From an uncultured Candidatus Saccharibacteria bacterium (lineage in GTDB: Bacteria > Patescibacteriota > SICC01): 58,799 nucleotides of DNA. The translations under genes were made by a program, and so were the position numbers. Every line of letters begins with the position of its first letter. Position 1 is the first letter of the stretch. The DNA lies in contig CAZGHP010000003.1 of NCBI GenBank assembly GCA_964525455.1, forward strand, positions 1 to 58,799, given 5' to 3'. The notes beneath the pieces were generated by a model. The model made no database searches, was not told the origin of the DNA, and was given only the letters and a program-made list of their open reading frames with translations. Positions 33,598 to 54,226 of the stretch are shown here, one piece after another.

Positions 33598-34482
33598 TCA
33601 GTTCTGGCGGGCCTGTTCCGTGTGGTCGGGTTCGGTCACGCGTTGCAGGATAGCAGCGACAAGCTGCTCGGAATCACTCTGTCCTTTGCCTTTCTCATAA
33701 TCCCGAATAACGAGGGCCAAGTGCGCGGCGAGGTCGGGTCGACCAGCTTCGACCAGCCGTTTCCCGATAAAGCATACGTTCCCCCGGGTTTCTTCTGGCT
33801 CCATCCGATGGATGGCGATAAGGTGGCCTACCGCTTCTTCCTCAGTAAGCGGTGTACGCGCTATCTCGCTTACGAATGATCGGGCGAGGTGGCTGACGTA
33901 TCGCTCGCGGCCGTGACGTTCCAAGATAGAGCCCGCGGCTTCCGCCGTCCGGGCATCCAGGCAGTCTCGGGCTTGTAACCTATCCAACAGGCCTTTCCCA
34001 TTGCAGATGATGATGCCGCGGGGCAGCTTGTCTTCGAGAGCGTCGAACGGTACCGGGCGGTATTGGCTCTTACCGAAATACATGCCGGCCGCCTGAAGCC
34101 TGTAAGTAACTGCCCTTTCTTCATCCAATTCACGAGAGCCTATCACTTCGGCCGTAGCCGCAGCGTACAGCCTCCTCCATTCCTCATTCCGCTCCAATGT
34201 GGGAGGGCTACCCTGCAACCAATCCACGCAGCGGTAGCTCCCGACGAGGCTTTCGGCAAGGGTGAGATCTCGCTCTAGTTCTCCGAAAGGAACATCGTTC
34301 ATCAACCGTTGGTATAGAATGCCGAGTCTGGCATCTAGTTTTTCAGCCAGTTCTTCCTCTAACCACTGCGCTTCTCCGGGCTCCAGAAACTCTCCATTCA
34401 AAGCATGAGCGCGGGTCTCAAGTTCCTGGAGGATTGCCTCAGCGTCTGTGCCGGCGGATGGGGTGTCTACTGGAGGAGCCAT
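33598..34482 (-). CDS. Hypothetical protein (294 aa), orphan
   Basis: Long ORF with ordinary, helical, acidic composition in lower-G+C DNA. No motif recognised. Confidence 0.55.
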   Translation of the reverse strand: MAPPVDTPSAGTDAEAILQELETRAHALNGEFLEPGEAQWLEEELAEKLDARLGILYQRLMNDVPFGELERDLTLAESLVGSYRCVDWLQGSPPTLERNEEWRRLYAAATAEVIGSRELDEERAVTYRLQAAGMYFGKSQYRPVPFDALEDKLPRGIIICNGKGLLDRLQARDCLDARTAEAAGSILERHGRERYVSHLARSFVSEIARTPLTEEEAVGHLIAIHRMEPEETRGNVCFIGKRLVEAGRPDLAAHLALVIRDYEKGKGQSDSEQLVAAILQRVTEPDHTEQARQN

Positions 34483-34728
34483 GTTATGTACGGTCAGTTA
34501 ATTAGCCGACCAATGTGTCACTACGGACAGCATAATCAAAATGTCTTTTGTAAGGAAATCCATAGGACATCGGCGGTGTCTGGCGCTAGAATGACCTTGC
34601 CCGACCGGTTGTATTGAACCTTCGTCAATACAACGGGAATCCTAGATTGTCGGTCGCCGTGGCGGCTACGACTGCGGACACCCACCTGGTCGCACCAGGT
34701 CTTCAATACCCGGTCCAGGGCACAAGGA

Positions 34729-34760
34729 AACCCCGGCGCTTCGCGAGAGGCGCCGGGGTT
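34729..34760 (-). terminator. Hairpin terminator downstream of tRNA-Pro
   Basis: Perfect 11-bp stem AACCCCGGCGC / GCGCCGGGGTT with a 10-nt loop. On the minus strand it follows the tRNA 3' end by 14 nt and is followed by TTTCCTTGT. Confidence 0.5.
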
Positions 34761-34774
34761 ATAGTTCCATGCTG

Positions 34775-34848
34775 TCGGGGCGGCCGGATTCGAACCGGCG
34801 ACCTCACGGCCCCCAGCCGTACGCGCTGCCAGACTGCGCCACGCCCCG
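34775..34848 (-). tRNA. tRNA-Pro (anticodon GGG)
   Basis: The reverse complement reads CGGGGCGTGGCGCAGTCTGGCAGCGCGTACGGCTGGGGGCCGTGAGGTCGCCGGTTCGAATCCGGCCGCCCCGA. Acceptor stem CGGGGCG/CGCCCCG. Anticodon stem TACGG/CCGTG around loop CT-GGG-GG. T-loop GGTTCGAATCC. CCA is not encoded. Confidence 0.9.
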
Positions 34849-34976
34849 TGCGTCCCATTATTGCACGGTTGATTGACGGCGGCCGTCTGCCCGCGTTACG
34901 CTGGTAACCTTTCGCGCACCGCGAAGGGCCGGACGGAAATCCGGAATCGGACCTCGACAGACGGGAGGAACCATCC

Positions 34977-35126
34977 ATGCCGGAGCGCGGTCACCATGAC
35001 GACTCCGAGACGGGCGCCGCGAACGTGAAGAAGACCATCATCCTCTTCGTGCTCACTGCTCTCGGATCCATCATCGTCTACGTCGCCCTGCTGCTTTCAG
35101 GTGCCATCAGTGTGTACGGCACCTAG
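34977..35126 (+). CDS. Candidate small membrane protein (49 aa), below the ORF-track size cut-off
   Basis: ATG preceded by a strong SD (GGGAGGA, 7-nt spacing). Product MPERGHHDDSETGAANVKKTIILFVLTALGSIIVYVALLLSGAISVYGT has a polar head and one long TM helix. Confidence 0.4.
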   Translation: MPERGHHDDSETGAANVKKTIILFVLTALGSIIVYVALLLSGAISVYGT

Positions 35127-35245
35127 GACACCCGCCACCCAGTCGCGTCGCGTCGGTCAGGATAGGAGATTTCGAAAGACTTCCACCCATCCTTACCCGC
35201 GACGCGACGTTTCACCTTCCGGCCATCGCGGTCCCGGTACGTCGG

Positions 35246-35686
35246 TTAGCTGTGACGAGTCGGCCCCACAGGCCGCGCGTCGTCCGGGAGTTGTCTCTGT
35301 ACGTGCTCGAAAAAGACCGCCTCCCAGGCGGCCTTGTCTCGAAAGTACGTCTCGCGGTCATGGTTCGGGAAACGTCGGACGGCCGGGCTGTCCACAAACC
35401 CGAGCGTGTCCCACATCCGCTTGACGGCTTCGGCGGCCGTGAACGGGAGTGCGGTCTCGGCGACCCGGATGAACCCCCGCCGGCAGAGGGCCGCCAGCTC
35501 TTCCGATCCGACTCCTCGTGCGGCGGCGACTTCGACGGGGTCGACCCGGATGTCGATTTCGCGGTATGCGTCTGCTAAGACGCCACGCGGCACGTGGTCC
35601 AAGTGGCGCTCGGGTGAATCCGCCTCCGGGGATTCCAGGATCCGCTCGGCCATTCCTGCCATCCGGGCCAGTGCGTTACGCTCCAT
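35246..35686 (-). CDS. Hypothetical protein (146 aa), orphan
   Basis: Balanced amino-acid composition, unlike the overlapping Arg/Pro-rich + strand ORFs. No motif recognised. Confidence 0.45.
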   Translation of the reverse strand: MERNALARMAGMAERILESPEADSPERHLDHVPRGVLADAYREIDIRVDPVEVAAARGVGSEELAALCRRGFIRVAETALPFTAAEAVKRMWDTLGFVDSPAVRRFPNHDRETYFRDKAAWEAVFFEHVQRQLPDDARPVGPTRHS

Positions 35687-35834
35687 ACCTAATTCTAGCG
35701 GGTAAACCGCGGTCTTAGGAAATTCGGCCGGTCCCGGTCGGCGTTACCGATATGTACCGAGTCCGCAAGCCTCGATTTTGGAGGAAATAACCACATAGTG
35801 TTGTAAAAAAGTACCTTGGTTATGGGTTTTCCCC

Positions 35835-35862
35835 TTGACAAGCGTGGATTCCTCCCTATAGT
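35835..35862 (+). promoter_or_regulatory. Sigma70-type promoter (TTGACA-16-TATAGT)
   Basis: Consensus -35 at 35835-35840 and -10 at 35857-35862, in an AT-rich intergenic region. It would give a leader of about 250 nt before CDS 36118. Confidence 0.55.
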
Positions 35863-36049
35863 GGACAAGCAATCTGGCTGCGACTGTCGAAACGATGCTC
35901 GCCGGCCGGTGCGCGCACCTTAGCAACCAGTGACTGCGACTTGACCAGGACTCTTTGGTCTCCTCGTGCGTGGCGGTGCTGCGTTCTTTTGGGCGTTGAG
36001 CGTGATTGTCCCACATGCCCGATGCGCCGCCGGCAGGAGGAGGCCAAGG

Positions 36050-36121
36050 ATGTTTCTCGGTTTCGACAAAACAGGCCCGCCGACCGGCGAGCCGCGGATA
36101 CGAAAGGGTGATCCCCTATGA
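36050..36121 (+). CDS. Candidate upstream leader peptide (23 aa)
   Basis: ATG at 36050 is preceded by AGGAGGAGG (36035-43, 6-nt spacing). Encodes MFLGFDKTGPPTGEPRIRKGDPL. Its TGA overlaps the ATG of the main CDS (ATGA at 36118-36121). There is no conservation evidence. Confidence 0.2.
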   Translation: MFLGFDKTGPPTGEPRIRKGDPL

Positions 36122-37017
36122 TTACGAAGCTCATGATGAGCCTGGTGCTGGGGGTAGTCATCCTCGGTACCGCAGGTGTTGGGTCGGCGAATGCCCAGTA
36201 TTTGCCGCCGCCCCTCTTCTATTGCGACGGGCGCTCGCTTGATCCCAATGACTCCTCGAAGGAGTGCCGGGTGGGCCAGGAGGTGGTGGCGGTAACGCGC
36301 CAGAATCTCCTCGATCCGAATGATACGCCGGTCCCGGCCGATTGGGACCCGGACTGGCACTTGGAGTACGTCGACGGAAAGCCCGTCGACACGTTCGCCC
36401 CCGAGCAGTTCGACACGACCACGTTCCGGTACGTGTATACGGTGCCGGGCACTTACAGCATTGAGTTCCGCACCGACGATGGTCGGCGCGGAGGTACGGG
36501 AGTCACCATTCTCGATTCCTCCATCCTGACCCGTGAGCCCGCCTTCAAGGTGACGGGTACGGGGTACAAGGCCGAGGGTGAGGACGGAAGTTGCTCGATT
36601 ACCCGGAGGCTGTATTACCGGGCGTATCGGGATCACAGCTACCGTTACGGCTTGAGGCTGAGCTACCGGTCTAAGTACCGGAAACAAGTGTCCGGATCGA
36701 AGCGGTACCGCCGCATCGTGCAAAAAGGCCGGGTAGCGGCGGTGCAGCAGCCGTGGATTGCCGATACTGCGTCCGAGCGGATCCGGATTAAGCAGTTCGG
36801 TCTGTCGTTCGATTCCGATCGAAAGATCCGTCTTTTGATCAACCGACGTGCCCGAGCCATCCTGACCCTCCGTGAGCGGGCCGTTGATGCCAATGGCACC
36901 CTCTACTACAAGTCGAGCAAGCGTTTCTTCAACCTGGAGAAGTGTAAGTTCGGCCGGAAGGTCGGAGCAACAACGCAGTCCAAGACAAGGTCAACGAAAC
37001 GATTGTCCCGTCGTTAG
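36118..37017 (+). CDS. Secreted protein with a PKD/Ig-like segment and a very basic Arg/Lys/Tyr-rich C-terminal half
   Basis: Signal peptide MITKLMMSLVLGVVILGTAGVGSANA. PKD-like stretch (FRYVYTVPGTYSIEFRTDDGRRGGTGVTILD). C-terminal RRLYYRAYRDHSYRYGLRLSYRSKYRK... Confidence 0.65.
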   Translation: MITKLMMSLVLGVVILGTAGVGSANAQYLPPPLFYCDGRSLDPNDSSKECRVGQEVVAVTRQNLLDPNDTPVPADWDPDWHLEYVDGKPVDTFAPEQFDTTTFRYVYTVPGTYSIEFRTDDGRRGGTGVTILDSSILTREPAFKVTGTGYKAEGEDGSCSITRRLYYRAYRDHSYRYGLRLSYRSKYRKQVSGSKRYRRIVQKGRVAAVQQPWIADTASERIRIKQFGLSFDSDRKIRLLINRRARAILTLRERAVDANGTLYYKSSKRFFNLEKCKFGRKVGATTQSKTRSTKRLSRR

Positions 37018-37033
37018 ACGTTTCGATCGTAAG

Positions 37034-37096
37034 ACGCCGCCCTACTATCTATGCCCTTCGGGGAATCACATAGGTACGGGCGGCGTTTTTTGTTTT
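37034..37096 (+). terminator. Strong intrinsic terminator
   Basis: Outer stem ACGCCGCCC (37034-42) / GGGCGGCGT (37078-86) encloses an inner CCC-TTCG-GGG tetraloop hairpin, followed by TTTTTTGTTTT. Confidence 0.75.
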
Positions 37097-37110
37097 CTTC
37101 CTACTAAGGA

Positions 37111-37139
37111 TTGACAGAATCCCTTAATAGTGGTACTAT
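37111..37139 (+). promoter_or_regulatory. Near-consensus sigma70 promoter (TTGACA-17-TACTAT with TGn)
   Basis: -35 at 37111-37116 and TGG-TACTAT at 37131-37139, about 33 nt upstream of the giant CDS start. Confidence 0.6.
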
Positions 37140-37171
37140 CACGTAATTTTGAATAAACATCTAACAAGCCT

Positions 37172-40100
37172 TTGGCCGTGCAAATAAATATCACCAACCG
37201 ATTCTTGCGATACCTGCAGATTGCCGCCGTGCTATGTGCTGGGTTGATTGGCGGTGCGACCGGTGGGGCTGGTGAGGCAGAGGCGTATCGCTACGTGGTG
37301 CCGACCACATCACACGGTGGCGAAGTGCATATCCGGACGACCGTTAACCAGGCGTATGTATCGCCCGACCCGGGATTCCCCGATGCTCCATCGGTCGGTT
37401 CGGCTGAGGACTCCATATCTTACATGCCCACCCAGTACCTGATTTTTTCCAAGAGCCCTCACATTCCCATTGAAATTAAGGGAGGGCGTTGGACGGGCGA
37501 GGGTGGTGATTGGGGCGATCAAGCCCGTAATGGGTCGATCCAAAGTGGGCATCGATTTGTCTATGAACTCTACCAACTGGGAAACTTGAACCGGGCCAGT
37601 GCGCGCAATCAGCGTTTAGCGGCAGTAGGCTCCCGCGATGGTTCTCATCCGGCTACTGCGAACGAGAATCACCATGCTGCTGATGGTGATTTCCACCAGT
37701 TATTCAATACGGGGTCGGTGAGCAATTCAGGGCTGACTTTCTTTGACCCTAATTACCCCCAATGGAATGGCTACTATGTGTTCCTCGTGAAAGTGGTTCA
37801 CGATCAGGATCAGAATAAGGGATATGTCGATCATGCCGATCGGTATATTAGGAGCTGGCCTCTCGACCCATTTTTTAACGGTGGAGCCACACGACCCTTC
37901 AGTGAATATGTCTATGTGCGTGGTTGTGCCGTAATCGGTGGAATTTATCCGACCCACCCCGATTCTTTGGTGGATTGTCCTGATAATTGGCGTCGCTCAG
38001 TCGCAGTTAACTTCCAGGGATTCGAAGTGGCGGGTAATGCTCACTGGCTCCGCGTTCCGGATACCGCCGGAGGACTTCCGACCCACCTGGCCAGTGCTCC
38101 TTCGCATCTCGCCTTCAATGTCCGGCAGAACTTTTACGGTGTTGCTTCCATACCTAGCAATCACGCGCAAACCTCTACCGGACTACACATCAACACGACT
38201 GCTCTGGAATGCCAGAACGCACCCAATGATTACATAACGAATACAGACTGGGACCGTTCCGCAGAAGTGCAGCCGGTAAACGCCCCTGAAGCAGAAATAC
38301 GGTTCCCGGGCCGGGGATCCGTCCAGATAGATCCTGGCGCCAATGATGGAAATCCGAACTGGTTTCCCAGTGGGCTGGGGCATGTCGGAGTCTTTCCCTT
38401 GTCCGCGGTTGGCATTGGACCCAATGTCGGATCTGCCGTGAACCTCTTTAGCTTTGGGAAAAGGAACCAGCTCTACATAGGCGGTACCTGGTTCACCACG
38501 GGACCATTAGTGGGCTGCCAGCCCAACAACATGCTCATCAATCCGTTAACCCCTCGGAATGTCTTTTCCGGCAATTACTACAACGGCCGCGATTCGTTCT
38601 CGGTCACGTCCGGCCATACGCAAGGACAGCTGAACTTCTCATTCCAGTACCACCCGCAGAACCCCTCCTTGGGTCGGGCGGACTGGCGCGTCGAGATTGC
38701 CGGCGTCGGTACAGTCGGCAGTGGCGTCGATGTCTTCCACGACACCGTAGGTCCGAACCAATGGAACACCCGTACCGCGAGCAATGTGGACGTGGGTGGC
38801 CTGGCCGGCGGGGTCCAGAACTGGCGTGCCTGTGTCGTAGCCACGAACCGGACATTCTGCTCCGGGTACATACCGTTCTGGGTCAATAACGGTCCGACTG
38901 CTCAGGTCCTCTCCCCGGGGAACGGCGCGAACGTGAATCACAACCAGTGCACCGCGTTGACTGCCCGTGTTACCGATACCGATACCGGCCAACGCGTCGG
39001 CACCCGCTTCAACCTCGTTTGGAACGACAGTCGTGGCTCGAACGTAGTCTACACACGGCTCTATGACTACTCGAGGATCAAGGCGAGTGGTTCCACGTTC
39101 TCGGCCGATGAACTCCGGGTCGAAAGCTGGCAGACGAACGGTAGCAATCAATCGTTCCCGGGAAACATCATCCTGACGAACTTCATCCGGCAGTACATCC
39201 CGGACGGTGCCAATGTCACCTGGAACGCACGGGGATATGACGTCCTCGGTGCATCTGACCTGACTGACGGCCGGCGGAACGATGCCGCTTTGCTTGGCGG
39301 ATTCGTCGCGCTGCTCGATAGCCTACAGCCGCGGACCGGCAACTTCCGCTGGGGCATGGCCGCTTCCGCCTCCTTCCACCGCAACACCCGTCCGAACCTG
39401 GCCGGAAACCAGACCTCCAAACAGCTCTTCGACCTGAGTGACAGCGGGTTCGCGACACCGCTGACCCATGCCACCGACGGCCAGACCGTCCGGGTGCGGA
39501 CGACCATCACCAACTCCGGTGAGACGCCGACCCCGTTCTATCAGATTTACGACTACCTCGGCAGTACGCGCGACTTCGAACGGCCGAAGAACGTGAATAT
39601 CCGCAAGGGCGCGGGCGGCACCAAGGTCGCCATCCCGGTCAATCAGCTCAACAGCCTGGTCCGGCAGGTAAAGGTCAACAATGCCGACAACCCCGGTGCG
39701 GACAGCTTCGGTCCGTTCCCCACGGACAGCGCGGACTACCGCAACTCCGCCTGGCGGATCGACTTCGGTACGAACACCGCTGCCGGATCGCTGCTCAACC
39801 GGGCCGCCGGCTCCGGTCAGCTGAACCCCGGTGAGCAGATCATCATCGAGTACACCGTACGGGCGGACCGCAACCAGGACATCACCGACCCGCGGCTGGA
39901 TCCGGATGCTGCCGACCAGGAAGGAAACTTCCAACGCCGCCAGCCGGTGGGAGGCGTCCGCGGCGGAGTGATGCCGTCCGACACCCACACCCACCTCTAC
40001 TACCAGGAGGACTTCTGCAACGCTGCGGTCCGGGTCCGCAAGAACCCGGAATTCCGCCAGGGTGACGTACTGGCACCGTGGCTGCGGGCCGGACGCGGTT

Positions 40101-40885
40101 CGGTGCACTCCAACCAGGGTATCTTCGGCTACGACAACGCCGGCGAGAACAACGCCACCTTCACGGTGACGGCGAACGGAGCGATCTTCCACTTTACCGG
40201 CCAGAATGCGTTCGCCGGCTACCGGGCCGCGAACCAGAAGTGTCGCCAGGACGGAGGCGTGGACTGGCGGAAGGAGATGTCCGGCAACGCGCAACGCCTG
40301 ATCAACGACCCGCACGAGACCAACGTGCAATCGTTCAACAACGCCGGGAACGTCGTGAACCTCCAAGGTCGGACGTACGTGACGAACGACCTCACTATCG
40401 GATCCGATAAGGAGATTCGGGGCACCGGTACGCTGGTGGTCCGCGGTACCCTGCGGATCAACGGCGACCTCCGGTATCGTGCCAGCGGCGGGACCGGGAT
40501 CGATTCGTTCGGCGTGATCGTGCTCGGTAACCTTGAGGTCGATTCGGACGTACAGAACCTCGTAGGCAGCTACTACGTGTCGGACGTCGAGCTTGACGGC
40601 GGGAACATCGAATTCGACGACGACCAATGCCCGGTCTACAACCCGGCCGCCACGAACCGCGGCGTCATCACGACCGGCCGCTCCGCGCAGCAACTCGATA
40701 TCCAAGGACTGATGGTGGCGCGGCGGTTCGACTTCCAGCGCTACTTCGTGAACCCGGGAGCCAACCCGGATGCGCCGGCCGATGCCGCGGAGAACGTCTA
40801 CTATGACGGCCGAGTGGTCGCCAACACGCCGCCGGGATTCGGTACGTTCCGAAACACCGCCGCCTGGTATGAAATCGCACCGTAA
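37172..40885 (+). CDS. Large orphan secreted/surface protein (1,237 aa), first gene of the pilMNO unit
   Basis: TTG (37172) or GTG (37178) start. Signal-like segment IAAVLCAGLIGGATGGAGEAEA. Asn/Gly/Thr/aromatic-rich with spaced Cys pairs. C-terminal beta-helix-like run (GTGTLVVRGTLRINGDLRY...GVIVLGNLEVDSDV). No catalytic motif recognised. Confidence 0.85.
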   Translation: MAVQINITNRFLRYLQIAAVLCAGLIGGATGGAGEAEAYRYVVPTTSHGGEVHIRTTVNQAYVSPDPGFPDAPSVGSAEDSISYMPTQYLIFSKSPHIPIEIKGGRWTGEGGDWGDQARNGSIQSGHRFVYELYQLGNLNRASARNQRLAAVGSRDGSHPATANENHHAADGDFHQLFNTGSVSNSGLTFFDPNYPQWNGYYVFLVKVVHDQDQNKGYVDHADRYIRSWPLDPFFNGGATRPFSEYVYVRGCAVIGGIYPTHPDSLVDCPDNWRRSVAVNFQGFEVAGNAHWLRVPDTAGGLPTHLASAPSHLAFNVRQNFYGVASIPSNHAQTSTGLHINTTALECQNAPNDYITNTDWDRSAEVQPVNAPEAEIRFPGRGSVQIDPGANDGNPNWFPSGLGHVGVFPLSAVGIGPNVGSAVNLFSFGKRNQLYIGGTWFTTGPLVGCQPNNMLINPLTPRNVFSGNYYNGRDSFSVTSGHTQGQLNFSFQYHPQNPSLGRADWRVEIAGVGTVGSGVDVFHDTVGPNQWNTRTASNVDVGGLAGGVQNWRACVVATNRTFCSGYIPFWVNNGPTAQVLSPGNGANVNHNQCTALTARVTDTDTGQRVGTRFNLVWNDSRGSNVVYTRLYDYSRIKASGSTFSADELRVESWQTNGSNQSFPGNIILTNFIRQYIPDGANVTWNARGYDVLGASDLTDGRRNDAALLGGFVALLDSLQPRTGNFRWGMAASASFHRNTRPNLAGNQTSKQLFDLSDSGFATPLTHATDGQTVRVRTTITNSGETPTPFYQIYDYLGSTRDFERPKNVNIRKGAGGTKVAIPVNQLNSLVRQVKVNNADNPGADSFGPFPTDSADYRNSAWRIDFGTNTAAGSLLNRAAGSGQLNPGEQIIIEYTVRADRNQDITDPRLDPDAADQEGNFQRRQPVGGVRGGVMPSDTHTHLYYQEDFCNAAVRVRKNPEFRQGDVLAPWLRAGRGSVHSNQGIFGYDNAGENNATFTVTANGAIFHFTGQNAFAGYRAANQKCRQDGGVDWRKEMSGNAQRLINDPHETNVQSFNNAGNVVNLQGRTYVTNDLTIGSDKEIRGTGTLVVRGTLRINGDLRYRASGGTGIDSFGVIVLGNLEVDSDVQNLVGSYYVSDVELDGGNIEFDDDQCPVYNPAATNRGVITTGRSAQQLDIQGLMVARRFDFQRYFVNPGANPDAPADAAENVYYDGRVVANTPPGFGTFRNTAAWYEIAP

Positions 40886-40943
40886 GGTAGTATCAACGAA
40901 GTAAAGGGGATATGACACAAACACGAGAACGAAGGGGAAAGCG

Positions 40944-42032
40944 ATGAGTCTGTTCGGTCAGCAGAAACAGTTCTTCGGGCTGGACATCTCCGGCACCTCG
41001 GTAAAGGTGGTGGAGCTTAAGCAAGGCCCGTCCAAGCCGACGTTGGTCGCCTACGGCGGCATGGTGTTGCCGGTCGGTTCGATGCAATCGGACTCGGAAG
41101 TGGATCTCCAGAACGTGTCCAACGCGATCCGCCAGGTCGTGAAGAAGGCGAAGATCCAGGCGACGCACTGCGTGGCGGCCCTGCCGGGATCCGGCGTCTT
41201 CACCAGCATCATCCGGTTGCCGGAGATGCCGAAGGGCGAGCTGGCCGACTCGATCCGCTGGCAGGCCAAGCAGTACGTTCCCTCGCCGCTCGAAGAGGTC
41301 ATCCTCGACTGGCATGTCGTCGGGGAAGCGACCCACCCGGCGCTGCCGAAAGGCCGTCCGGGAAGCACGGAAGACCAGGCCAGCGGCAACAAGGAGATCG
41401 AAGTGATGATCATCGCCGCGCCGATCGCCCTGGTCAAGAAGTACGTGAAGATCATCACCGGCGCCGGGCTGAAGCCGCAGGCGCTGGAGATCGAGCCGCT
41501 TTCGCTGGCGCGTTCGGTAGTCGGCATCCGCGAGGAACCGGTGGTCGTGCTCGACATGGGGCAGGCTGGTTCCGAGATCTCGATCGTCCAGAACGGCGTG
41601 ATCCGGCTCAACCGGAACACCACCGCCGGCGGCGGGGCGCTGACCCGTGCCATTTCCCAGAGCCTCGGCGTCGACGCCAACCGTGCCGAGCAGTTCAAGC
41701 GCGACTTCGGCCTGCGCGCCGACAAGCTCGAAGGCCAGGTCCCGAAGGCGGTCAAGCCGGTGCTCGACACGCTGATGGCGGAAATCCGCCGTTCGCTCGA
41801 GTACTACCGTGAGCAGCCGCATTCCCAGATGGATATCCGCGAGATGATCGTAGTCGGCGGCACGGCCCGCATGCCGGAACTGCTGGCGCTGCTTTCGGGC
41901 ACGTTCGGCCTGGAGACCAAGATCGGCGACCCGTGGGCGAACGTGAACTACGCGTCCGGACTCAAGCAGCAGCTTTCCGAATTGGCACCGTCGTTCGCGG
42001 TCACCGTCGGACTGGCGATGCGTGAGGAATAA
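40944..42032 (+). CDS. pilM: Type IV pilus assembly protein PilM (actin-like ATPase fold)
   Basis: FFGLDISGTSVKVVELK phosphate-1 motif, VLDMGQAGSEISIV and MIVVGGTARMPEL. SD AAGGGGA upstream. Confidence 0.9.
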   Translation: MSLFGQQKQFFGLDISGTSVKVVELKQGPSKPTLVAYGGMVLPVGSMQSDSEVDLQNVSNAIRQVVKKAKIQATHCVAALPGSGVFTSIIRLPEMPKGELADSIRWQAKQYVPSPLEEVILDWHVVGEATHPALPKGRPGSTEDQASGNKEIEVMIIAAPIALVKKYVKIITGAGLKPQALEIEPLSLARSVVGIREEPVVVLDMGQAGSEISIVQNGVIRLNRNTTAGGGALTRAISQSLGVDANRAEQFKRDFGLRADKLEGQVPKAVKPVLDTLMAEIRRSLEYYREQPHSQMDIREMIVVGGTARMPELLALLSGTFGLETKIGDPWANVNYASGLKQQLSELAPSFAVTVGLAMREE

Positions 42033-42051
42033 ACCGAAGCTACGAGGACCC

Positions 42052-42780
42052 ATGCCGACACTCAACATCAACCTCCTGCGCAAAGAGCAGCGGCAAGTGG
42101 ACCGCCTCTCGCAAGCGACGATCATCGTCAGCGTGGTGTCCGGCTCGATCGTGGTGCTGACGCTCCTGGTCGTGGTCTTCCTCTACACCACGATCGCGAT
42201 CCGCGACGGCCAGAAGAACGGCCTGATCGAGGACCGGCAAGGGTTTGCGAAAGAGACGGAACAGCTTTCCGACCTTGACCAGCCGTTCTACCCCGAGATG
42301 TCCCTGGCAGAGCAGGCCAAGGCGTACCAGCAGCAGGTGGACGGACTCCGCGAACTGATCGACAACCACAAGTACTTCACGCTGTACCTCTCGGAGATCG
42401 CCGTGAACACGCCGCTTTCGATCATCTACGAATCGTTCTCCTCGGAGAGCAACGACCGGCTGACCGTGACCGGTCGCGCCAAGACCTACGGCGACCTCTC
42501 GAAACTGGCGAAGAAGTTCGAAAACCTCTCCTTCGCCCGTTCCGCGAGCATCCAGGATGCGCAGCTTGATCGGACGAACCGCACCTACCCGGTGCAGTTC
42601 ACCCTGATCATCGAACTGAAGACCGCCGCGGAGCTCAAGAAGCTGCCTGCCCCGGACCGGGGAGAACGCGGAGCCACCGCGACGCCGCGACCGAGTCCTA
42701 ACGCTTCGCCGCAGAGCGGCCCGTCCACCGCCCCGCCCGGATCCACATCCGACGTTCCATTACCGCTGGGGGCTCCCTGA
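42052..42780 (+). CDS. pilN: Type IV pilus assembly protein PilN
   Basis: MPTLNINLLRKEQRQ (INLLP-type N-terminal motif), a single TM helix, a periplasmic-type domain and a Pro/Ser-rich tail. Start set at 42052, after the pilM stop. Confidence 0.8.
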   Translation: MPTLNINLLRKEQRQVDRLSQATIIVSVVSGSIVVLTLLVVVFLYTTIAIRDGQKNGLIEDRQGFAKETEQLSDLDQPFYPEMSLAEQAKAYQQQVDGLRELIDNHKYFTLYLSEIAVNTPLSIIYESFSSESNDRLTVTGRAKTYGDLSKLAKKFENLSFARSASIQDAQLDRTNRTYPVQFTLIIELKTAAELKKLPAPDRGERGATATPRPSPNASPQSGPSTAPPGSTSDVPLPLGAP

Positions 42781-43436
42781 TGGCCAAGTCACCGTTCAGC
42801 CTGAGCAGCCGGTATAACGTGATCGCGGCGGTCACCGCCGGGTCGTTGGTAGCCGTCATCCTGATCATCAGCCTGTTGGTCGCGCCGGCGTGGAACCGGC
42901 TGCAGGAACTGGGACAGGAGATTCCGGTCGAGCAGCAGAAGCGCGACCAGGCCGAACGGGACCTGGAGAACCTGAAGGGTGCCAAGGAGTTCTTCGAACA
43001 GCAGGCCTCAGCCGTGGAGACCGTGAATACGGCCCTGCCGGTCCGCGCCGAAGTACCCGGGATCCTGGTTATCCTGGAAGGCCTCGCGATCGATTCGGGT
43101 GTGTTCCTCGATGGATTCACGCCGCAGCAGCTCGGTCCTGATGCCGTCGCCGCGGCCGCTGGTACGCCGGAAGCCGACGTGGCGCCCGGCCAGGTGGATT
43201 CGCTGGAGGTCACCGCGAACTTCAGCGGCACGTATCCCGCGCTCCTGAACTTCCTCTATAGCCTGGAGCGGAGCCTGCGGATCGTGGACGTGAAGGTCAT
43301 CAACGTGAATGCCGTTGAAGAGACCGGCGCGATCACCGGCAGTATCTCGTTCCGTACCTATTACAAGACCGTCGAAGGCGGCCCGGACCAGCCGGCCCCC
43401 GCCGCGAGCGGCGCACCCGCGGGAGGAGGCACCTGA
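42780..43436 (+). CDS. pilO: Type IV pilus assembly protein PilO-like
   Basis: Single TM helix, coiled coil (QELGQEIPVEQQKRDQAERDLENLK) and core LEVTANFSGTYPALLNFLYSLERSLRIVDV. 1-nt overlap with pilN (TGATG). Confidence 0.7.
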   Translation: MAKSPFSLSSRYNVIAAVTAGSLVAVILIISLLVAPAWNRLQELGQEIPVEQQKRDQAERDLENLKGAKEFFEQQASAVETVNTALPVRAEVPGILVILEGLAIDSGVFLDGFTPQQLGPDAVAAAAGTPEADVAPGQVDSLEVTANFSGTYPALLNFLYSLERSLRIVDVKVINVNAVEETGAITGSISFRTYYKTVEGGPDQPAPAASGAPAGGGT

Positions 43437-43720
43437 TGAAAGGCTTACGGAACCTGGCACCCTGGCAGATCATCCTGACGGCGGTCGGCGTACTGACGGT
43501 CGTCCTGGTCGGCGGGTACTTCTTGGTGACCATGTTGACGACCACGCCTCCGGCTGAAGAAGTGACGGCGACCGTACCGGGCGACCTGGGCGGGGAACCT
43601 AACGCCGAAGTGCTCAAGGCGCTGGAGGTGTTCGAGGAGCCGCGGGAGCTTCCGATCGTGCCGGAACCGGTCCAGACCGTCGATCCCAACGCGCCGAGTA
43701 CCGTCAACCCGTTCGAGTGA
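43436..43720 (+). CDS. Small bitopic protein (94 aa) in the PilP position
   Basis: One TM helix and an acidic/Pro-rich ectodomain ending ...TVNPFE. TGATG overlap with pilO. Confidence 0.5.
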   Translation: MKGLRNLAPWQIILTAVGVLTVVLVGGYFLVTMLTTTPPAEEVTATVPGDLGGEPNAEVLKALEVFEEPRELPIVPEPVQTVDPNAPSTVNPFE

Positions 43721-43748
43721 CCCGTTCCGGATCCCGCGCCCCGACCCC

Positions 43749-43777
43749 TTGACGATTGGGCATTTTTATGCTATATT
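43749..43777 (+). promoter_or_regulatory. Sigma70-type promoter (TTGACG-17-TATATT)
   Basis: -35 at 43749-43754 and -10 at 43772-43777, in the AT-rich gap upstream of pilB. Confidence 0.55.
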
Positions 43778-43812
43778 GAGGTAATTTTCGTGGAAACAAT
43801 ATATACAAATCA

Positions 43813-45579
43813 ATGCTGAACAGTGCTACCAACCCGGTCCAGTCGTCCGCCACGAAGTTTCAGGACGCCCTCGTCGAGCTGAAGCTGTTGACGCCCGAAC
43901 AGGCCAAGAACCTGCGGCTGCAAAGCATCAACTCCGGCACGCCGCTGGAACAACTGGCCAGGGACATGGGGCTGGTCGACGACGAAGGCATCGCCAAGGC
44001 CAAGGGGCTCATGCTGGGCCTCCCTTACGTCGACCTGCGGAACGAATCCGTGTCGCGAGAGGTCCTCCAGGCGGTCCCGCAGCAGGTCGCCAAGAACTAC
44101 GCCGTGGTCGCCTTCGCCAAACGCGGCAGCCGTTACCAGATCGCGCTACAGAATCCGAAGAACGTACAGGCGCTCGAAGCGCTTGAGTTCGTCACGAAAC
44201 GTTCCAAGCTGGCGGTAGACCTCCACATCGCCTCACGGGCGAGCGTCGAGCAATTGGTCAGTCAGTACGGTTCGCTTTCCGGCGAAGTCACCGAAGTGCT
44301 CAAGGAGACCGGTCCCGACGACCTCGCGATCGAAGACGTCGAAGAGGATCTCGGCTCCGCGCGGATGCTGGAAAAGGTCGTTTCCGAAGCGCCGATTGCC
44401 AAGGCGATCGGCGCGATCCTCAAGTACGCCGTGAAGACCAATGCCTCGGACGTCCATATCGAACCCACGGAAAGTGACATCAAGGTCCGCTATCGGCACG
44501 ACGGCGTGCTGGAGAACACCCTGAACCTGCCGCGCAAGACGTTGCCGGCGCTGGTCTCGCGGATCAAGATCCTCTCCAACCTGAAGATCGACGAGAGCCG
44601 GATTCCCCAGGACGGCCGTTTCAACTCGAAGTTCGAGGGACGGGAGATCGACTTCCGGGTCTCGACGTTTCCGACCGTGCATGGCGAGAAGGTCGTGATG
44701 CGCTTGCTCGACAAGGCCCAGGGCCTGAAGACGCTCGAGGAAATCGGCGTGTCCGGCCGCGGTTTCGACAAGATGGTCGAGGGGCTCGAGGAGCCGTACG
44801 GTATGACGCTGGTGACCGGCCCGACCGGTTCCGGTAAGTCGACCACGCTCTACGCCTCCCTGAGCCGGCTCAACAGCGTCGGCGTGAACATCGTGACGTT
44901 GGAAGACCCGGTGGAATATTCGGTCGACGGCGTGAACCAGTCGCAGATCAACCCGCAGATCGGATACAGCTTCGCCTCCGGCTTACGGAGTATCCTCCGC
45001 CAGGACCCGGACATCGTGATGGTCGGGGAAATCCGCGACGGGGAGACCGCCGACATGGCGGTGAACGCCTCGCTGACGGGACACATCGTCCTCTCCACCT
45101 TGCATACCAACGATGCGGCGGGCGCGCTCCCGCGGCTCGTGGACATGGGCGTGGAGCCCTTCCTGCTCGCCTCTTCGATCAACACCCTGATCGCCCAGCG
45201 GCTGGTACGGAAGATCTGCGACGCTTGCACGCAAACGGTCGAGATTTCCGCCCCCGAGCGGAAGACCGTCGAAGAGACGGTCGCGTCCATGCCGAAACAG
45301 ATCCGCGACGAACTCAAGCCGCTCAAAGACTACAAATTCCAGAAAGGTGCCGGATGTGATAAGTGCGGCAAAGGCGGCTATCGTGGCCGGATCGGCATCT
45401 TCGAAGTGCTCCCGATGTCGGACGGTATCAAGGAGCTGTTGCTCGGCAAGGCTTCCGGCACCGCCATTGCCAAACGTGCCATCGAAGAGGGTATGGTGAC
45501 GATGCAGATGGACGGCGTGCTGAAGGTCCTTGCAGGTATCACCACGATTGAAGAAGTCATGCTGAGGACAAAGGAGTAA
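43813..45579 (+). CDS. pilB: Type IV pilus extension ATPase PilB (GspE family)
   Basis: N-terminal T2SSE_N-like domain, Walker A GPTGSGKSTTLY, Asp box, Walker B, His box, and tetracysteine motif (CDAC...CDKCGKGGYRGRIGIFE). Confidence 0.95.
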   Translation: MLNSATNPVQSSATKFQDALVELKLLTPEQAKNLRLQSINSGTPLEQLARDMGLVDDEGIAKAKGLMLGLPYVDLRNESVSREVLQAVPQQVAKNYAVVAFAKRGSRYQIALQNPKNVQALEALEFVTKRSKLAVDLHIASRASVEQLVSQYGSLSGEVTEVLKETGPDDLAIEDVEEDLGSARMLEKVVSEAPIAKAIGAILKYAVKTNASDVHIEPTESDIKVRYRHDGVLENTLNLPRKTLPALVSRIKILSNLKIDESRIPQDGRFNSKFEGREIDFRVSTFPTVHGEKVVMRLLDKAQGLKTLEEIGVSGRGFDKMVEGLEEPYGMTLVTGPTGSGKSTTLYASLSRLNSVGVNIVTLEDPVEYSVDGVNQSQINPQIGYSFASGLRSILRQDPDIVMVGEIRDGETADMAVNASLTGHIVLSTLHTNDAAGALPRLVDMGVEPFLLASSINTLIAQRLVRKICDACTQTVEISAPERKTVEETVASMPKQIRDELKPLKDYKFQKGAGCDKCGKGGYRGRIGIFEVLPMSDGIKELLLGKASGTAIAKRAIEEGMVTMQMDGVLKVLAGITTIEEVMLRTKE

Positions 45580-47967: not shown

Positions 47968-48420
<453 letters not shown>

Positions 48421-48609: not shown

Positions 48610-49080
48610 ATGACACACGCCATCAAATCCTTGACGACGCGCAGTCAGCGGGGCTTCACCCTGATCGAACTGCTCGTGGTCATCGCCATCATCGCGATCC
48701 TGGCGGCATTGATCCTGGCGGCGCTCAACAGTGCCCAGCAGGGCAGCCGTGACTCGCGGCGGAAGAGCGACCTCAACCAGTACAAGACGGCGCTGGCCCA
48801 GTTCCGCTCGGACGAGGGGACCTACCCGGTCTCCGCGAACGTAGCCATGACATCCACGGCCGCCCCGTACGCGGGGACCCCGGCCCTCGATGACGGCTAC
48901 ATGACTGCATTCCTGTCGGATCCGACGAGCGGTCAGTCGTACTACTACATCGGTTCGGCTAACGACTTCGGCGTCTGCACGAACCTCGAACGTGGCGCGG
49001 CTGATTTCGCAGTCGGCCCGACCTACGCCGGTGACCCTCGTAATGGGGCCACGGCCACGGTCTGCACCGTCCAAGGCTAG
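48610..49080 (+). CDS. Type IV pilin (major-pilin candidate 2)
   Basis: Class III signal peptide with G|[16 protein letters not shown]. Strong SD (GGAAGGGGGTGA). 156 aa. Two Cys in the C-terminal region. Confidence 0.9.
   Translation: MTHAIKSLTTRSQRGFTLIELLVVIAIIAILAALILAALNSAQQGSRDSRRKSDLNQYKTALAQFRSDEGTYPVSANVAMTSTAAPYAGTPALDDGYMTAFLSDPTSGQSYYYIGSANDFGVCTNLERGAADFAVGPTYAGDPRNGATATVCTVQG
48652..48743 (+). repeat. Copy 2 of the 92-nt pilin 5' block
   Basis: See 48004-48095. Confidence 0.8.
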
Positions 49081-51267: not shown

Positions 51268-52532
51268 TGGGCCGGCTGCGGAAGATCTGGCAGGACCAGC
51301 GGGGCTACACCCTGGTCGAACTCATCGTCTCCTCGATGATCTTCATCCTGATCTCCATCGTGGCGGTGGGGGTATTCGTGAGCGTCTCGCAGACTTCCAG
51401 CAAGACCGCCGCGCAGCGCAAGGTCCAGCAGGATGTGCGGGTGAACATCGAGGAAGTGGCCCGGACGATCCGGTCATCCAAGGTCGACTACGCGTTCTAT
51501 CGGGAATCCAGCTCCGACCCCCGGTGCCGGTTGCCGACGGACGGCACGGGCAGCCGGGCGGTCTCGCTCATACAGACCCAGGCCGGCCCGTCCAATACCC
51601 CGGTGGATACCCGCATCATCTTCTTCTACGACCCAGGGAGCACGCCGGCCCAAGGCACGGGCGCGCTGTATCGTTATGAGACCAGTGCCGATGCACCGAC
51701 TCCCGCTTGCGGCGACCTCTTCGCCGCGGACAACGGAAAGGTGCGTCTGACCGCCGACAACGTGGCGGTCACCGGTACGCGCTTCTTCGTGAGTCCGGTG
51801 GTCGATCCGGCCGGCCCGGCGTGCGCCAACCCGGCGAACCAGGCGTGCCAATTGCCCAAGAACACCCACCCGCGCGTCACCGTCAGCGTGACGGTCCGCA
51901 CGATCGGCGTGTTCGCGACTAACGTCAACGAACAGTCACAGTTCAGCGAGACCACCCTGCAGACGACGGTCGGCAGCCGTGCCTATCCGATCAGCGGCCT
52001 GGTCGGCCAGCCGGAAGGGGGGACGCCCACCACTCCGACCCCCACCCCCGAACCAGCACCGGAGATAATCGTCCGGGACGGCAACGACTTCTTCCTGTGC
52101 CAGGTCACCGGTCGTTCCGATTACTGCCAGGACGATCCCGGCCACCTGACCGCGGTCTATGCGCTCAGCGGAGGCACCGGAGGAAATCCGCCGTTCCGCG
52201 TAGCCTATACGTTCGCGGTGCCGTCCGCTGGCACCTACGACCTGAAGCTGTCGTACTACAACTTCCCGCTCGGGAACCTGAACCCGCCTTCCGGGTACGG
52301 GTACCGGCTCACGGCCCGGGCGCTCTCGCCGAACGGGACGGTCCAGGACACGGTCAACGTGCCGATCGAGAATGCGAGTTCCGCCGCGAACCCGCGTGTC
52401 GGCCTGCTTCTCTCCGACCTCAACCTGCCCGTCGGGACGGTCACCGTCGTGATCGACTGGACCAACGACTCATACAGCCCGGGAGTGTTCGACGCGAACC
52501 TCGGCATCGTTAACGTATTCCTGGAGGGGTGA
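51267..52532 (+). CDS. Modular minor pilin (PilW-like N-terminus, Pro/Thr linker, C-terminal beta-sandwich-like module)
   Basis: DQRG|YTLVELIVSSMIFILISI class III signal. Linker GGTPTTPTPTPEPAPE. The C-terminal 130 aa (YTFAVPSAGTYDLKLSYYNF...VTVVIDWTNDSY) look like a carbohydrate-binding-module-type jelly roll. Confidence 0.75.
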   Translation: MGRLRKIWQDQRGYTLVELIVSSMIFILISIVAVGVFVSVSQTSSKTAAQRKVQQDVRVNIEEVARTIRSSKVDYAFYRESSSDPRCRLPTDGTGSRAVSLIQTQAGPSNTPVDTRIIFFYDPGSTPAQGTGALYRYETSADAPTPACGDLFAADNGKVRLTADNVAVTGTRFFVSPVVDPAGPACANPANQACQLPKNTHPRVTVSVTVRTIGVFATNVNEQSQFSETTLQTTVGSRAYPISGLVGQPEGGTPTTPTPTPEPAPEIIVRDGNDFFLCQVTGRSDYCQDDPGHLTAVYALSGGTGGNPPFRVAYTFAVPSAGTYDLKLSYYNFPLGNLNPPSGYGYRLTARALSPNGTVQDTVNVPIENASSAANPRVGLLLSDLNLPVGTVTVVIDWTNDSYSPGVFDANLGIVNVFLEG

Positions 52533-54226
52533 TGAGAAAGCTCTGGCACAACCTGAAGGACAGCACGGGCAACGCCGTTCTCTTCTCGCTGGTCATCATG
52601 GGATCGGCGCTCACCGCCAGCCTCGGGATGGCCACGCTCGTGACCGGTGAGATCCGCAACGTCGCGCTGATCCCGCCGTCGGAGCGGGCCTACTACAAGG
52701 CCGAGAGCTACATTGAGCAAGGCCTGTGGGAGAAGAAGCAGGACGCGGATTTCCAGTTCCCGTCCCTGGAGGACCCGGACGCGGCCCTGCCTGCGGACTT
52801 CCTGTGTCCCGGCGGTTCCTGCTTCACGACCGATCCCGGGCAACAGACTGATTTCCTGATCGATTTCCTGGCGACCACCTCGCCGACCAGCGACGACCTT
52901 CCGTTGCCGCAGGATGAGGTCAGGCAACTGGACGTCGCCACCACGCCGACCACATCCGCCTCGGGCTGCCTGACCTTGGGAGAGGTCGTGGGAGAGGCCG
53001 GCTTCAACGGCGTGGAGGTGACGATCGTCGCGTTCTCGAATACCGATTCCACCAACCGGTTCCCGACCGACGACCCTTCGACGCCGGTCTTCGTGGAGAA
53101 ACGGGTGGTTCCGGCGGGTACGAGTCCGAGCGTCCTGCTCGGCGCCGGGACCGTCAATGCGCTCGGGGAAGCATCCCCGCCATTGACGGACTCCACGTTC
53201 CGCCTGCGCCTCAGGGCGCTCGGTTCGGACGCCACCGTCACCCCGCGGGTCACCACGGGCGGCTGCGGCAGCGGCAACCCCTTGGTACTGCGCAGCCCTG
53301 ACTTCACGGTCCGGGCGGTGGCGCGGGACGACAACGCGCAGCGGGGGATCCAGGTACTGACGCCGGCCTCCCAGGAGATCGTGAACGTCTTCGACTACGT
53401 CTTGTTCTCCGACCTCGACCTCTCCAAGCTCGATGCCAAGGTGCCGGAGACCGCTACGAGCCAATCGGTCGTCGTGCCGGTGCGAATGGTCAGTGGCTGC
53501 AGTTCCGGCAGCGAACAGCCGATTCCCGGTGTCGACCACAACCAGACGTCGAGACTGAACATTACGATCGATAACGGCCAAAGCGCGCCGGTCAGCGTCG
53601 GCAGCAGTGCGATCTTCACCAACCTGGAGCCGGGCGTGGAGTACCGGGTCAGCGCCTTCTCGTCTCAGGGCTGGTATCACGCATGCAACAGCCCTCAGGC
53701 GGTGATAACGGAATCGAATCAGCAAGTGACTTCGCCGACGCTGCGGATGGTACCGCAACCACGGATTCCGCTGTACCGGCTCTGGAGCCTTTCCCACTTC
53801 GCGGACCACTTCTATACCATCAACGTCAATGAATACATCCAACGGCGGGACTTCATATCGGGAGCCGCGCCGTATAATTCGCAGGAAGGAATCACCGGGT
53901 ATGTCTATCAGATCCAGATGCCCGGTACCGGCCCGTTCTACCGGCTCTGGAGCCCGGGTGCGATGGATCACTTCTACACGATGAGCGCGGCGGAGCGCGA
54001 CAGCGCCATCGCCGTACATGGGTACGTATACCAGAACATTTCCGGATACCTGTGGCCGTACAACGGCACGTGTCCTGCCGGTAGCGGCCCGCTCTACCGG
54101 AGTAACCGCGGCGATGACCACTTCTATACCGCCAGCGTGGATGAGTGGAACTCAGCGGCAGCGGCTAGTCCGCCCTGGGTAAAAGAGGGTATCGCGGGCT
54201 GCATCTGGTCTTCGCCGCCCATATGA
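52529..54226 (+). CDS. PilX-like pilus protein with C-terminal DHFYT-type repeats
   Basis: N-terminus (STGNAVLFSLVIMGSALTASLGMATLV) resembles PilX_N: a hydrophobic helix without Glu5. Large beta-rich middle region. Three C-terminal repeats containing (L/F)YR(L/S)...DHFYT. Confidence 0.65.
   Translation: MMRKLWHNLKDSTGNAVLFSLVIMGSALTASLGMATLVTGEIRNVALIPPSERAYYKAESYIEQGLWEKKQDADFQFPSLEDPDAALPADFLCPGGSCFTTDPGQQTDFLIDFLATTSPTSDDLPLPQDEVRQLDVATTPTTSASGCLTLGEVVGEAGFNGVEVTIVAFSNTDSTNRFPTDDPSTPVFVEKRVVPAGTSPSVLLGAGTVNALGEASPPLTDSTFRLRLRALGSDATVTPRVTTGGCGSGNPLVLRSPDFTVRAVARDDNAQRGIQVLTPASQEIVNVFDYVLFSDLDLSKLDAKVPETATSQSVVVPVRMVSGCSSGSEQPIPGVDHNQTSRLNITIDNGQSAPVSVGSSAIFTNLEPGVEYRVSAFSSQGWYHACNSPQAVITESNQQVTSPTLRMVPQPRIPLYRLWSLSHFADHFYTINVNEYIQRRDFISGAAPYNSQEGITGYVYQIQMPGTGPFYRLWSPGAMDHFYTMSAAERDSAIAVHGYVYQNISGYLWPYNGTCPAGSGPLYRSNRGDDHFYTASVDEWNSAAAASPPWVKEGIAGCIWSSPPI
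53762..54208 (+). repeat. Three tandem repeats of about 45-55 aa with a P(L/F)YR...DHFYT....E......Y..EGI(T/A)G(Y/C) pattern
   Basis: PLYRLWSLSHFADHFYTINVNEY...QEGITGYVY; PFYRLWSPGAMDHFYTMSAAERD...VYQNISGYLW; PLYRSNRGDDHFYTASVDEW...KEGIAGCIW. I believe this corresponds to the repeat family catalogued as DUF5648. That assignment is from memory. Confidence 0.7.

Follow-up and report, generated by a model that had tools for sequence, protein, structure and literature searches.

What is the large secreted protein whose gene stands directly in front of the pilus assembly genes of an uncultured Candidatus Saccharibacteria bacterium, and does it belong to the pilus at all? The gene, here called X, occupies positions 37172..40885 on the forward strand of a 58,799-nt stretch of DNA (positions 1 to 58,799 of contig CAZGHP010000003.1, assembly GCA_964525455.1), the whole of which is referred to below as the window, and encodes a protein of 1237 aa. 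A first reading, made from the letters alone (hereafter the sequence-only reading), had described X as an orphan at the head of a pilM-pilN-pilO unit and had guessed at a pilus-associated adhesin or contact factor. According to our analysis, X is predicted to be the first gene of a type IV pilus (T4P) operon, ahead of pilM-pilN-pilO, and this assignment is strongly supported by gene order in related genomes and metagenomes. The orphan status did not hold, since an exhaustive search with a hidden Markov model (HMM) retrieved 432 relatives. The window has a GC content of ~64%, and the closest relatives of X occur in metagenome-assembled genomes labelled Candidatus Saccharibacteria or Patescibacteria group.

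Linkage to pilus genes was found in close as well as in distant relatives. Close relatives keep the order X-pilM-pilN-pilO, a small protein of 94 aa in the window, and pilB-pilT-pilC; the fuller arrangement begins with an open reading frame (ORF) of ~320 aa ahead of X and continues after pilC with pilins and pilD, and three genomes of the window's own lineage share this gene order. Six distant relatives, in which the C-terminal domain of X is only 28–45% identical, were chosen without regard to gene context. In four of them (P0153, P0152, P0090, and P0025) X lies directly 5' of pilM-pilN-pilO-(~96 aa)-pilB-...-pilC, and in a fifth (P0125, locus L013) it lies directly 5' of pilN-pilO-(93 aa)-pilC-pilins with pilM several genes downstream, in what looks like a second, rearranged pilus locus. 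In the sixth (P0154, L014) the contig stops within the gene that follows X. A metagenome scan was keyed only on the C-terminal peptide YDGR[VIL][LVI]ANT, a pattern derived from a seven-sequence alignment, and yielded 55 confirmed loci, in which pil genes were annotated by means of local HMMs (PilM, N, O, B, and C). Forty-four of these extend at least 1,300 nt downstream of X and were regarded as informative; pilM is the next gene on the same strand in 43 of the 44 and is followed by pilN, pilO, and pilB. The gap between X and pilM ranges from 2 to 544 nt in the metagenome loci (median 61) and measures 58 nt in the window. The exception, L058 (5191 nt), lacks pilM, N, O, B, and C within 4.8 kb after the X domain. 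The claims that X leads the pilMNO unit and is associated with the pilus are thus strongly supported by comparative genomics, homologues being found almost always upstream of pilM.

The limits of the transcription unit point in the same direction. An intrinsic terminator (37031..37096, + strand), consisting of a long GC-rich hairpin and a U-tract, ends the upstream gene (36118–37017) and sets the pilus transcription unit off on its 5' side; its hairpin (37031–37090), together with the U-tract, has a folding energy of −36.4 kcal/mol (z = −3.8). It is followed by a sigma-70-type promoter-like site (37111..37139, +) of the form TTGACA-17-TACTAT with an extended −10 TG (10/12 matches). Both the strong terminator and the near-consensus promoter had been noted in the sequence-only reading and were recovered here; moreover, the hairpin as well as the −35 box and the motif TGgTAnnAT are kept in two loci (L006 and L007) whose X is only ~65% identical. 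The spacer between X and pilM (40886..40943, +; 58 nt) carries GGGG Shine–Dalgarno-like runs. Neither terminator-like nor promoter-like sites were detected in it and its folding is not unusual (z = +1.3), in agreement with the earlier statement that no hairpin separates the two genes. We infer that X and pilM are co-transcribed. The spacer shows a mean column identity of 95% across four loci, yet no conserved RNA element is claimed, because the flanking C-terminal codons of X and pilM itself are equally conserved. An Rfam scan of positions 34400–44000 gave two matches only: a tRNA gene at 34775–34848 (− strand; RF00005, 57.6 bits) in a low-coding stretch upstream of the pilus region, and a sub-threshold GlmY match on the terminator hairpin, which was taken as chance.

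The ORF at 37172..40885 is the sole long one of the region with coding-type third-position GC content (GC3 0.72 vs. GC2 0.47). While the ORF itself is real, the TTG at 37172 is probably not its start: judging from the public gene call for an identical protein and from a residue-for-residue alignment with the start of a 65% identical homologue, the GTG at 37178, two codons further on, is more likely the true initiation codon, which would give a protein of 1235 aa. X begins with a predicted Sec-type signal peptide (37178..37285, +) to be cleaved after AEA at residue 38 (numbered from TTG 37172). The signal-like hydrophobic segment that the sequence-only reading had pointed out is the only one in the protein; the AEA cleavage site followed by Tyr comes directly after it, and further membrane-type segments are absent. 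No membrane anchor, lipobox, or wall-sorting signal was found in the sequence, and the signal is not a leader of the prepilin type; no class III motif is present. In homologues, a corresponding AxA site precedes a conserved Y-x-Y-[IV]-[IV]-x-P motif. The described richness in Asn, Gly, and Thr and the presence of Cys were likewise recovered: X contains 11.2% Gly, 8.6% Asn, 6.9% Thr, and 1.2% Lys as well as 11 Cys, of which five (Cys252, 269, 347, 449, and 1153) are invariant and two more (Cys563 and 1024) almost invariant among 18 homologues. The whole protein has no match in Pfam or NCBIfam, and BLASTP against all other ORFs of the window did not reveal a paralogue or a common module. Behind the signal peptide, two parts can be distinguished. 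The N-terminal region (37286..40075, +; aa 39–968) is beta-rich, fast-evolving, and lineage-specific, with conserved Cys; when it was compared with Pfam in four overlapping pieces (E ≤ 10), only sub-threshold matches to Big_7, FlgK-D2, and SusE were obtained. The C-terminal domain (40076..40882, +; aa 969–1237) is predicted to consist of an alpha-helix and a small beta-solenoid and ends in ...AENVYYDGRVVANTPPGFGTFRNTAAWYEIAP.

This division recurs throughout the X family. The exhaustive HMM search compared a trimmed three-sequence profile with 1.84 billion representatives at a cut-off of E ≤ 1e-3. Twenty-four of the 432 relatives are strong matches (E < 1e-30) that extend over most of the profile or over a large C-terminal portion of it; complete proteins among them comprise 1,200–1,870 aa, and several of the 24 are shorter or fragmentary. 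The other relatives align to the last ~270 profile positions only, corresponding to aa 969–1237 of the window protein. Word-indexed searches had missed the family, with just three clusters retrieved by the whole protein and two by the three-sequence profile. X is therefore no orphan, but belongs to a large family that is invisible to word-based searches and to Pfam. An HMM of the C-terminal domain was built from 20 diverse copies; residues 969–1237 of the window protein match it over the full domain length with 266 bits, and the domain ends at most five residues from the protein C-terminus in 133 of 133 full copies. It is characterized by the invariant pattern G...Y...G...G...R...E..YDGR...PPG, with the invariant charged residues R225, E242, D247, and R249 near its C-terminus, and no Pfam or NCBIfam family covers it. 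Total protein length in the family varies from 469 aa to >2,057 aa, and from 477 to 2,492 aa in 120 members that look full-length. An N-terminal hydrophobic segment is present in 106 of these 120 members, an additional transmembrane-like segment in one, and a prepilin motif in none. The commonest form has ~530 aa, with an N-terminal region of ~230 aa that carries GWxWSxxxGWISLN-type repeats (56/120). At L013 (3581–7081), the X domain belongs to a distinct subfamily with the C-terminus ...WN[DE].VPRN and proteins of ~1,200–1,750 aa. The search results, the position of the domain end, and the N-termini thus define a tripartite architecture in which a Sec signal and a variable region precede a single constant domain at the C-terminus. 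The family has so far been found only in loci labelled as, or looking like, Patescibacteria.

AlphaFold2 (AF2) modelling of full-length X with three sequences was unusable, with a predicted local distance difference test (pLDDT) score of 30. A 39-sequence alignment of the C-terminal domain, in contrast, gave a model with a pLDDT of 79.3 and a predicted template modelling score of 0.81, in which residues 62–265 mostly exceed 87. The modelled domain comprises an alpha-helix (67–80), a short beta-solenoid (strands 96–222), and a terminal segment with the motif YDGR...PPGF. Foldseek searches of the PDB and of a viral library yielded no significant match. The top neighbours, below significance (E 0.06–0.2, at best 0.08 in the PDB and 0.058 in the viral library; TM-score 0.34–0.40), are ice-binding solenoids of the DUF3494 (PF11999) type, which, like the "choice-of-anchor A" domain, combine a beta-solenoid with an alongside alpha-helix in secreted surface proteins. 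Identity to these is only ~10%, and the YDGR...PPGF motif and the linkage to pilM are peculiar to X. Correspondingly weak are the matches of TIGR04215, found in 2 of 39 relatives (E = 0.0095) and not in the window protein. A second non-significant neighbour is the competence minor pilin ComZ of Thermus thermophilus (PDB 6qvi; Foldseek probability 0.77–0.91, E 0.14–0.29, TM-score 0.26–0.33), a tip-associated protein with a beta-solenoid. ComZ is, however, a genuine pilin, with a class III signal and a helix at its N-terminus; X carries a Sec signal instead and lacks a prepilin motif. DUF7305 (PF23981) matches the solenoid region of 5 of the 39 relatives below its cut-off of 27 bits (best E = 6e-4); the domain of the window protein has no match to it, there is no family member at the 27-bit cut-off, and a full-text literature search returned no mention of DUF7305. 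The sub-threshold DUF7305 and TIGR04215 matches agree with the Foldseek neighbours on the fold class. Profile searches of PDB sequences gave nothing significant, and the hits to the T4 gp5 beta-helix (E ~0.2) and to 3esm (E 0.73) were taken as chance. As the matches in the PDB, the viral library, Pfam, and NCBIfam are all non-significant, we assign the modelled domain to the beta-solenoid fold class and file it under no known family. The Gly/hydrophobic repeats that the sequence-only reading had seen at the C-terminus are thus real and form the predicted solenoid; the resemblance to PilX/TadG that had been attached to them could not be confirmed, the weak ComZ likeness and the sub-threshold DUF7305 matches being the only hints of this kind.

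X also differs from the pilus machinery in its rate of change. In a comparison of the window with L007, identities amount to 92% for PilM, 85–87% for PilB, PilT, and PilC, 76–77% for PilN and PilO, and 69–71% for two pilins. X itself was compared with P0002 (1267 aa, the same length as the L007 ORF, ~66% identity); identity is 60–74% depending on the segment and lowest at the N-terminus. Measured against the pilins (69–71%) and the machine proteins (76–92%), X evolves at the pace of the exposed pilus subunits or more quickly. The variable region of the relatives spans 200 to >1,800 aa and contains a range of modules, namely DUF5648 (P0012 and P0018), a beta/gamma-crystallin domain (P0007), an Ig-like domain (P0032), and the Cys-rich DUF4215 (P0031). 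DUF5648 has been reported as a three-bladed propeller that binds glycans or receptors; in the O-antigen-targeting BSAP toxins it serves as the receptor-binding domain, and an endolysin contains it as a putative wall-binding domain. This module is common to the X variable regions of P0012 and P0018 and to the end of the window's own minor-pilin block.

Which function could unite these properties? Export without a pilin domain, a constant C-terminus joined to a module-swapping N-terminus, and fixed membership in the pilus operon suggest a PilY1-like (by analogy only), non-pilin, pilus-associated adhesin or host-recognition factor, a proposal that we regard as evenly balanced between right and wrong. 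Under this proposal X would be a Sec-exported, non-pilin accessory subunit of the Saccharibacteria/Patescibacteria T4P, and its gene, transcribed from a promoter of its own, would head the operon X-pilM-pilN-pilO-(94 aa)-pilB-pilT-pilC-pilins. The constant C-terminal domain of ~270 aa would dock it to the conserved pilus machinery or to a minor-pilin tip complex, and the large, fast-evolving N-terminal region would be exposed and would bind to the host bacterium's surface as a lineage-specific module. The docking, the location on the pilus, and the adhesive role are what we infer from architecture and gene order; the adhesin or contact-factor guess of the sequence-only reading has in this way gained indirect support. 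It also accords with that reading that homologues are linked to T4P genes, that the spacer to pilM holds no predicted terminator or promoter, and that the fold searches matched no intracellular enzyme.

The closest parallels are PilY1 and PilC1/PilC2 of Pseudomonas, Neisseria, and Myxococcus, which are likewise large, Sec-exported, non-pilin proteins encoded in a T4P cluster, in which the C-terminal domain is conserved and the binding modules sit in a variable N-terminal region. The C-terminal domain of PilY1/PilC is, however, a beta-propeller, whereas that of X is modelled as a helix and a beta-solenoid, no similarity in sequence or fold was found between them, and the fold hits of the X domain include no propeller. 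Furthermore, the X gene does not stand among the minor pilins, but 5' of pilM and ~9 kb upstream of the minor-pilin block. The PilY1/PilC logic would thus have been reached with an unrelated fold and from a different gene position. In Nanosynbacter lyticus TM7x, PilX1 and PilX2 are large T4P-locus proteins with lectin-like C-terminal domains, and PilX2 aids host binding (PMC11623550). Unlike X, both start with a helix of the pilin type and possess a globular pilin domain, and their genes lie among the pilins; their counterparts in the window are likely the minor pilin at 51201–52532 and the DUF5648 protein at 52529–54226. Pfam searches revealed no pilin-like helix of the PilX_N, TadE, or N_methyl type in X, whose N-terminus is a signal of the cleavable type, and neither Pfam and NCBIfam nor the fold comparison indicated a secretin (PilQ/GspD) domain or its N0/N1 parts.

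Several observations speak against an adhesin. The likenesses to ComZ and to the ice-binding proteins remain below significance (E ≥ 0.06; TM-score 0.26–0.40), and the N-terminal region of the window protein contains no recognizable binding domain. In the commonest members of ~530 aa (56/120) the GW-repeat region is fairly conserved, which means that the variability of X is not universal. PilY1-type adhesins are usually encoded together with minor pilins and not with pilMNO, and the position of X beside the alignment-complex genes fits a structural component of the cell envelope equally well. Moreover, the X gene is not found beside pilM at either T4P locus of S. epibionticum, in which T4P genes are essential (PMC10633639); X might be dispensable there, located elsewhere in the genome, or replaced.

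The main alternative sees in X a structural component of the envelope that belongs to a secretin-less pilus machine, namely a collar or guide spanning the wall or S-layer and standing in for PilP/PilQ. Its C-terminal domain would then bind the ectodomains of PilN/PilO or the 94-aa protein, and its N-terminal part would reside in or on the wall. We consider this possible but rather unlikely. The strict operon-head position next to pilM-pilN-pilO and a small transmembrane protein recalls the neighbourhood in which diderm bacteria encode pilP and pilQ, and bacteria of the Candidate Phyla Radiation (CPR) lack a secretin (PMC6744442). In keeping with this and with the sequence-only reading, neither a secretin nor a PilY1 domain was found in the window's pilus cluster by Pfam and NCBIfam searches. 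The conserved aromatic GW-repeat region of the ~530-aa forms could serve to bind the cell wall, and a D-Ala-D-Ala carboxypeptidase gene that closes the operon in L008 and L010 hints at a coupling to wall remodelling. A fixed conduit would not be expected, however, to show such enormous variation in length and domains, including glycan-binding modules, nor to diverge at the speed of pilins while the machine proteins remain 76–92% identical; the missing anchor, lipobox, and wall-sorting signal and the absence of X from both pilM loci of S. epibionticum, despite its essential T4P genes, also count against this function.

It appears improbable that X is a glycan-degrading or wall-remodelling enzyme in which a catalytic solenoid, similar to tail-spikes or pectate lyases, is guided to its substrate by the N-terminus, acting either on the own wall for pilus passage or on the envelope of the host. 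Variable binding modules attached to one conserved domain are the architecture of endolysins and depolymerases, DUF5648 occurs in an endolysin, and both the predicted beta-solenoid fold and the invariant charged residues R225, E242, D247, and R249 would suit an active enzyme. Yet searches of Pfam, NCBIfam, PDB sequences, and PDB folds detected no significant similarity to glycosidases or lyases. The solenoid is short (strands ~96–222) with non-enzymatic nearest fold neighbours (DUF3494 ice-binding proteins and ComZ), and the invariant residues belong to the terminal YDGR...PPGF motif outside the solenoid core. Least probable of all is that X is a passenger, either a cargo that the pilus machine helps to secrete, in the manner of TCP and TcpF, or a surface protein without a direct pilus role. 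A Sec signal without an anchor would agree with this, and in some bacteria proteins encoded in the operon are known to depend on T4P for their secretion. In a monoderm, however, a second export step after Sec is needless, and both the first-gene position and the C-terminal domain have been kept across very divergent CPR lineages with tiny genomes, which argues for a direct physical role of X in the pilus.

The pilus genes downstream of X all lie on the + strand. PilM (40944..42032) is recognized by PF11104 (E = 1e-46) and, above cut-off, by TIGR01175 (208 bits), and PilO (42780..43436) by PF04350 (E = 1e-7). The pilN-like gene between them (42022..42780) scores 22.1 bits with PF05137, just below the cut-off of 22.8, and keeps its position in all loci. 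The 94-aa protein (43436..43720) is a small single-pass membrane protein with an N-terminal transmembrane helix and an NPF motif near the C-terminus. Counterparts follow pilO in L008 (98 aa), L009 (96 aa), L010 (97 aa), L012 (94 aa), and L013 (93 aa), four of the five with the NPF motif. The equivalent protein of S. epibionticum, SEML1_0107, was scored essential (PMC10633639 supplement), and the 94-aa protein may be a PilP-like partner of PilN/PilO. A second promoter-like site (43749–43777, +; TTGACG-17-TATATT with TG) lies in the 92-nt gap 5' of pilB and may be an internal promoter of the pilus operon. Pfam and NCBIfam identify pilB (43813–45579), pilT (45584–46732), and pilC (46745–47959). 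The subsequent block, with matches to N_methyl, T2SSG, and Peptidase_A24, contains two pilins (47968–48420 and 48610–49080), the prepilin peptidase pilD (49165–49995), and three minor pilins (49971–50606, 50596–51267, and 51201–52532). The last of these, of 443 aa, has a long extra C-terminal region beyond a Pro/Thr-rich linker, and in position and layout resembles the large minor pilins of the TM7x "PilX1" type. The block is closed by a protein of 565 aa (52529..54226, +; DUF5648 E = 9e-44) with a hydrophobic N-terminus, no clear prepilin motif, and two C-terminal DUF5648 stretches, which on the basis of its domains is a second candidate pilus adhesin of the locus.

Some further genes accompany the pilus cluster. 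A small RNase H gene (RVT_3/RNase_H; 54223–54624, +) lies just past it in the window, and such genes are also found upstream of X on the same strand in four distant CPR loci (L008 8389–8793, L009 4299–4700, L010 396–797, and L014 1978–2376), either adjacent to X or with one gene between. The 299-aa protein encoded upstream of X (36118–37017, +) has a signal peptide, an extremely Lys/Arg-rich C-terminal third, and no Pfam match; it was rejected as a conserved partner of X, as only the closest relatives have it (39–51% identity in L002, L006, and L007), whereas distant loci do not. In L008 (19007–20266) and L010 (9281–10501), the last gene of the pilus operon, right behind the pilins, encodes a Peptidase_S11 (D-Ala-D-Ala carboxypeptidase), which suggests that wall remodelling is coupled to the pilus there. 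The remaining window looks like ordinary chromosome, including dnaJ, comEC, ruvB, and glycosyltransferases. It also encodes a 1226-aa protein (3283–6963, +) with subtilase (S8), Ig-like, and SpoIID domains and an M23 peptidase (22417–24132) that shares the Ig-like domain; the two are further large secreted, wall-active proteins.

A conserved gene before pilM is not mentioned in the studies that we consulted on CPR protein families (PMC6744442), on T4P of Saccharibacteria (PMC11623550, PMC9894109, and PMC10633639), and on M. amalyticus (PMC11880426). Judged from the searchable literature, the X family is undescribed, although absence there falls short of proof. Cryo-electron tomography of M. 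amalyticus has shown pili anchored to the host as well as a lance-like structure whose tip carries an unidentified "barb" density (PMC11880426); to connect this density with X would be pure speculation.

A large part of bacterial diversity falls within the Patescibacteria, and every member in culture lives attached to other bacteria. In the few Saccharibacteria that are genetically tractable, T4P are essential or important for locating the host and keeping hold of it, and the recognition molecules are largely unknown. For the cultured representatives T4P have been described as essential for host attachment, with the adhesins largely unknown (PMC11623550, PMC10633639, PMC9894109). The X family offers a concrete and testable candidate for a determinant of host specificity or for the extracellular part of the secretin-less pilus machine, and the YDGR...PPGF C-terminal domain followed by pilM provides a simple genomic marker with which such operons can be annotated. 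On balance, we consider it probable that X is an unrecognized core constituent of the T4P across much of the Patescibacteria, being either a tip "barb" that sets the host range or the missing extracellular part of a machine that has no secretin, and that its C-terminal solenoid is a new pilus-docking domain. As a tip "barb", X would carry in its hypervariable N-terminus the host-range determinant of these episymbionts; in both cases the solenoid would represent a docking domain without counterpart in the T4P systems studied so far.

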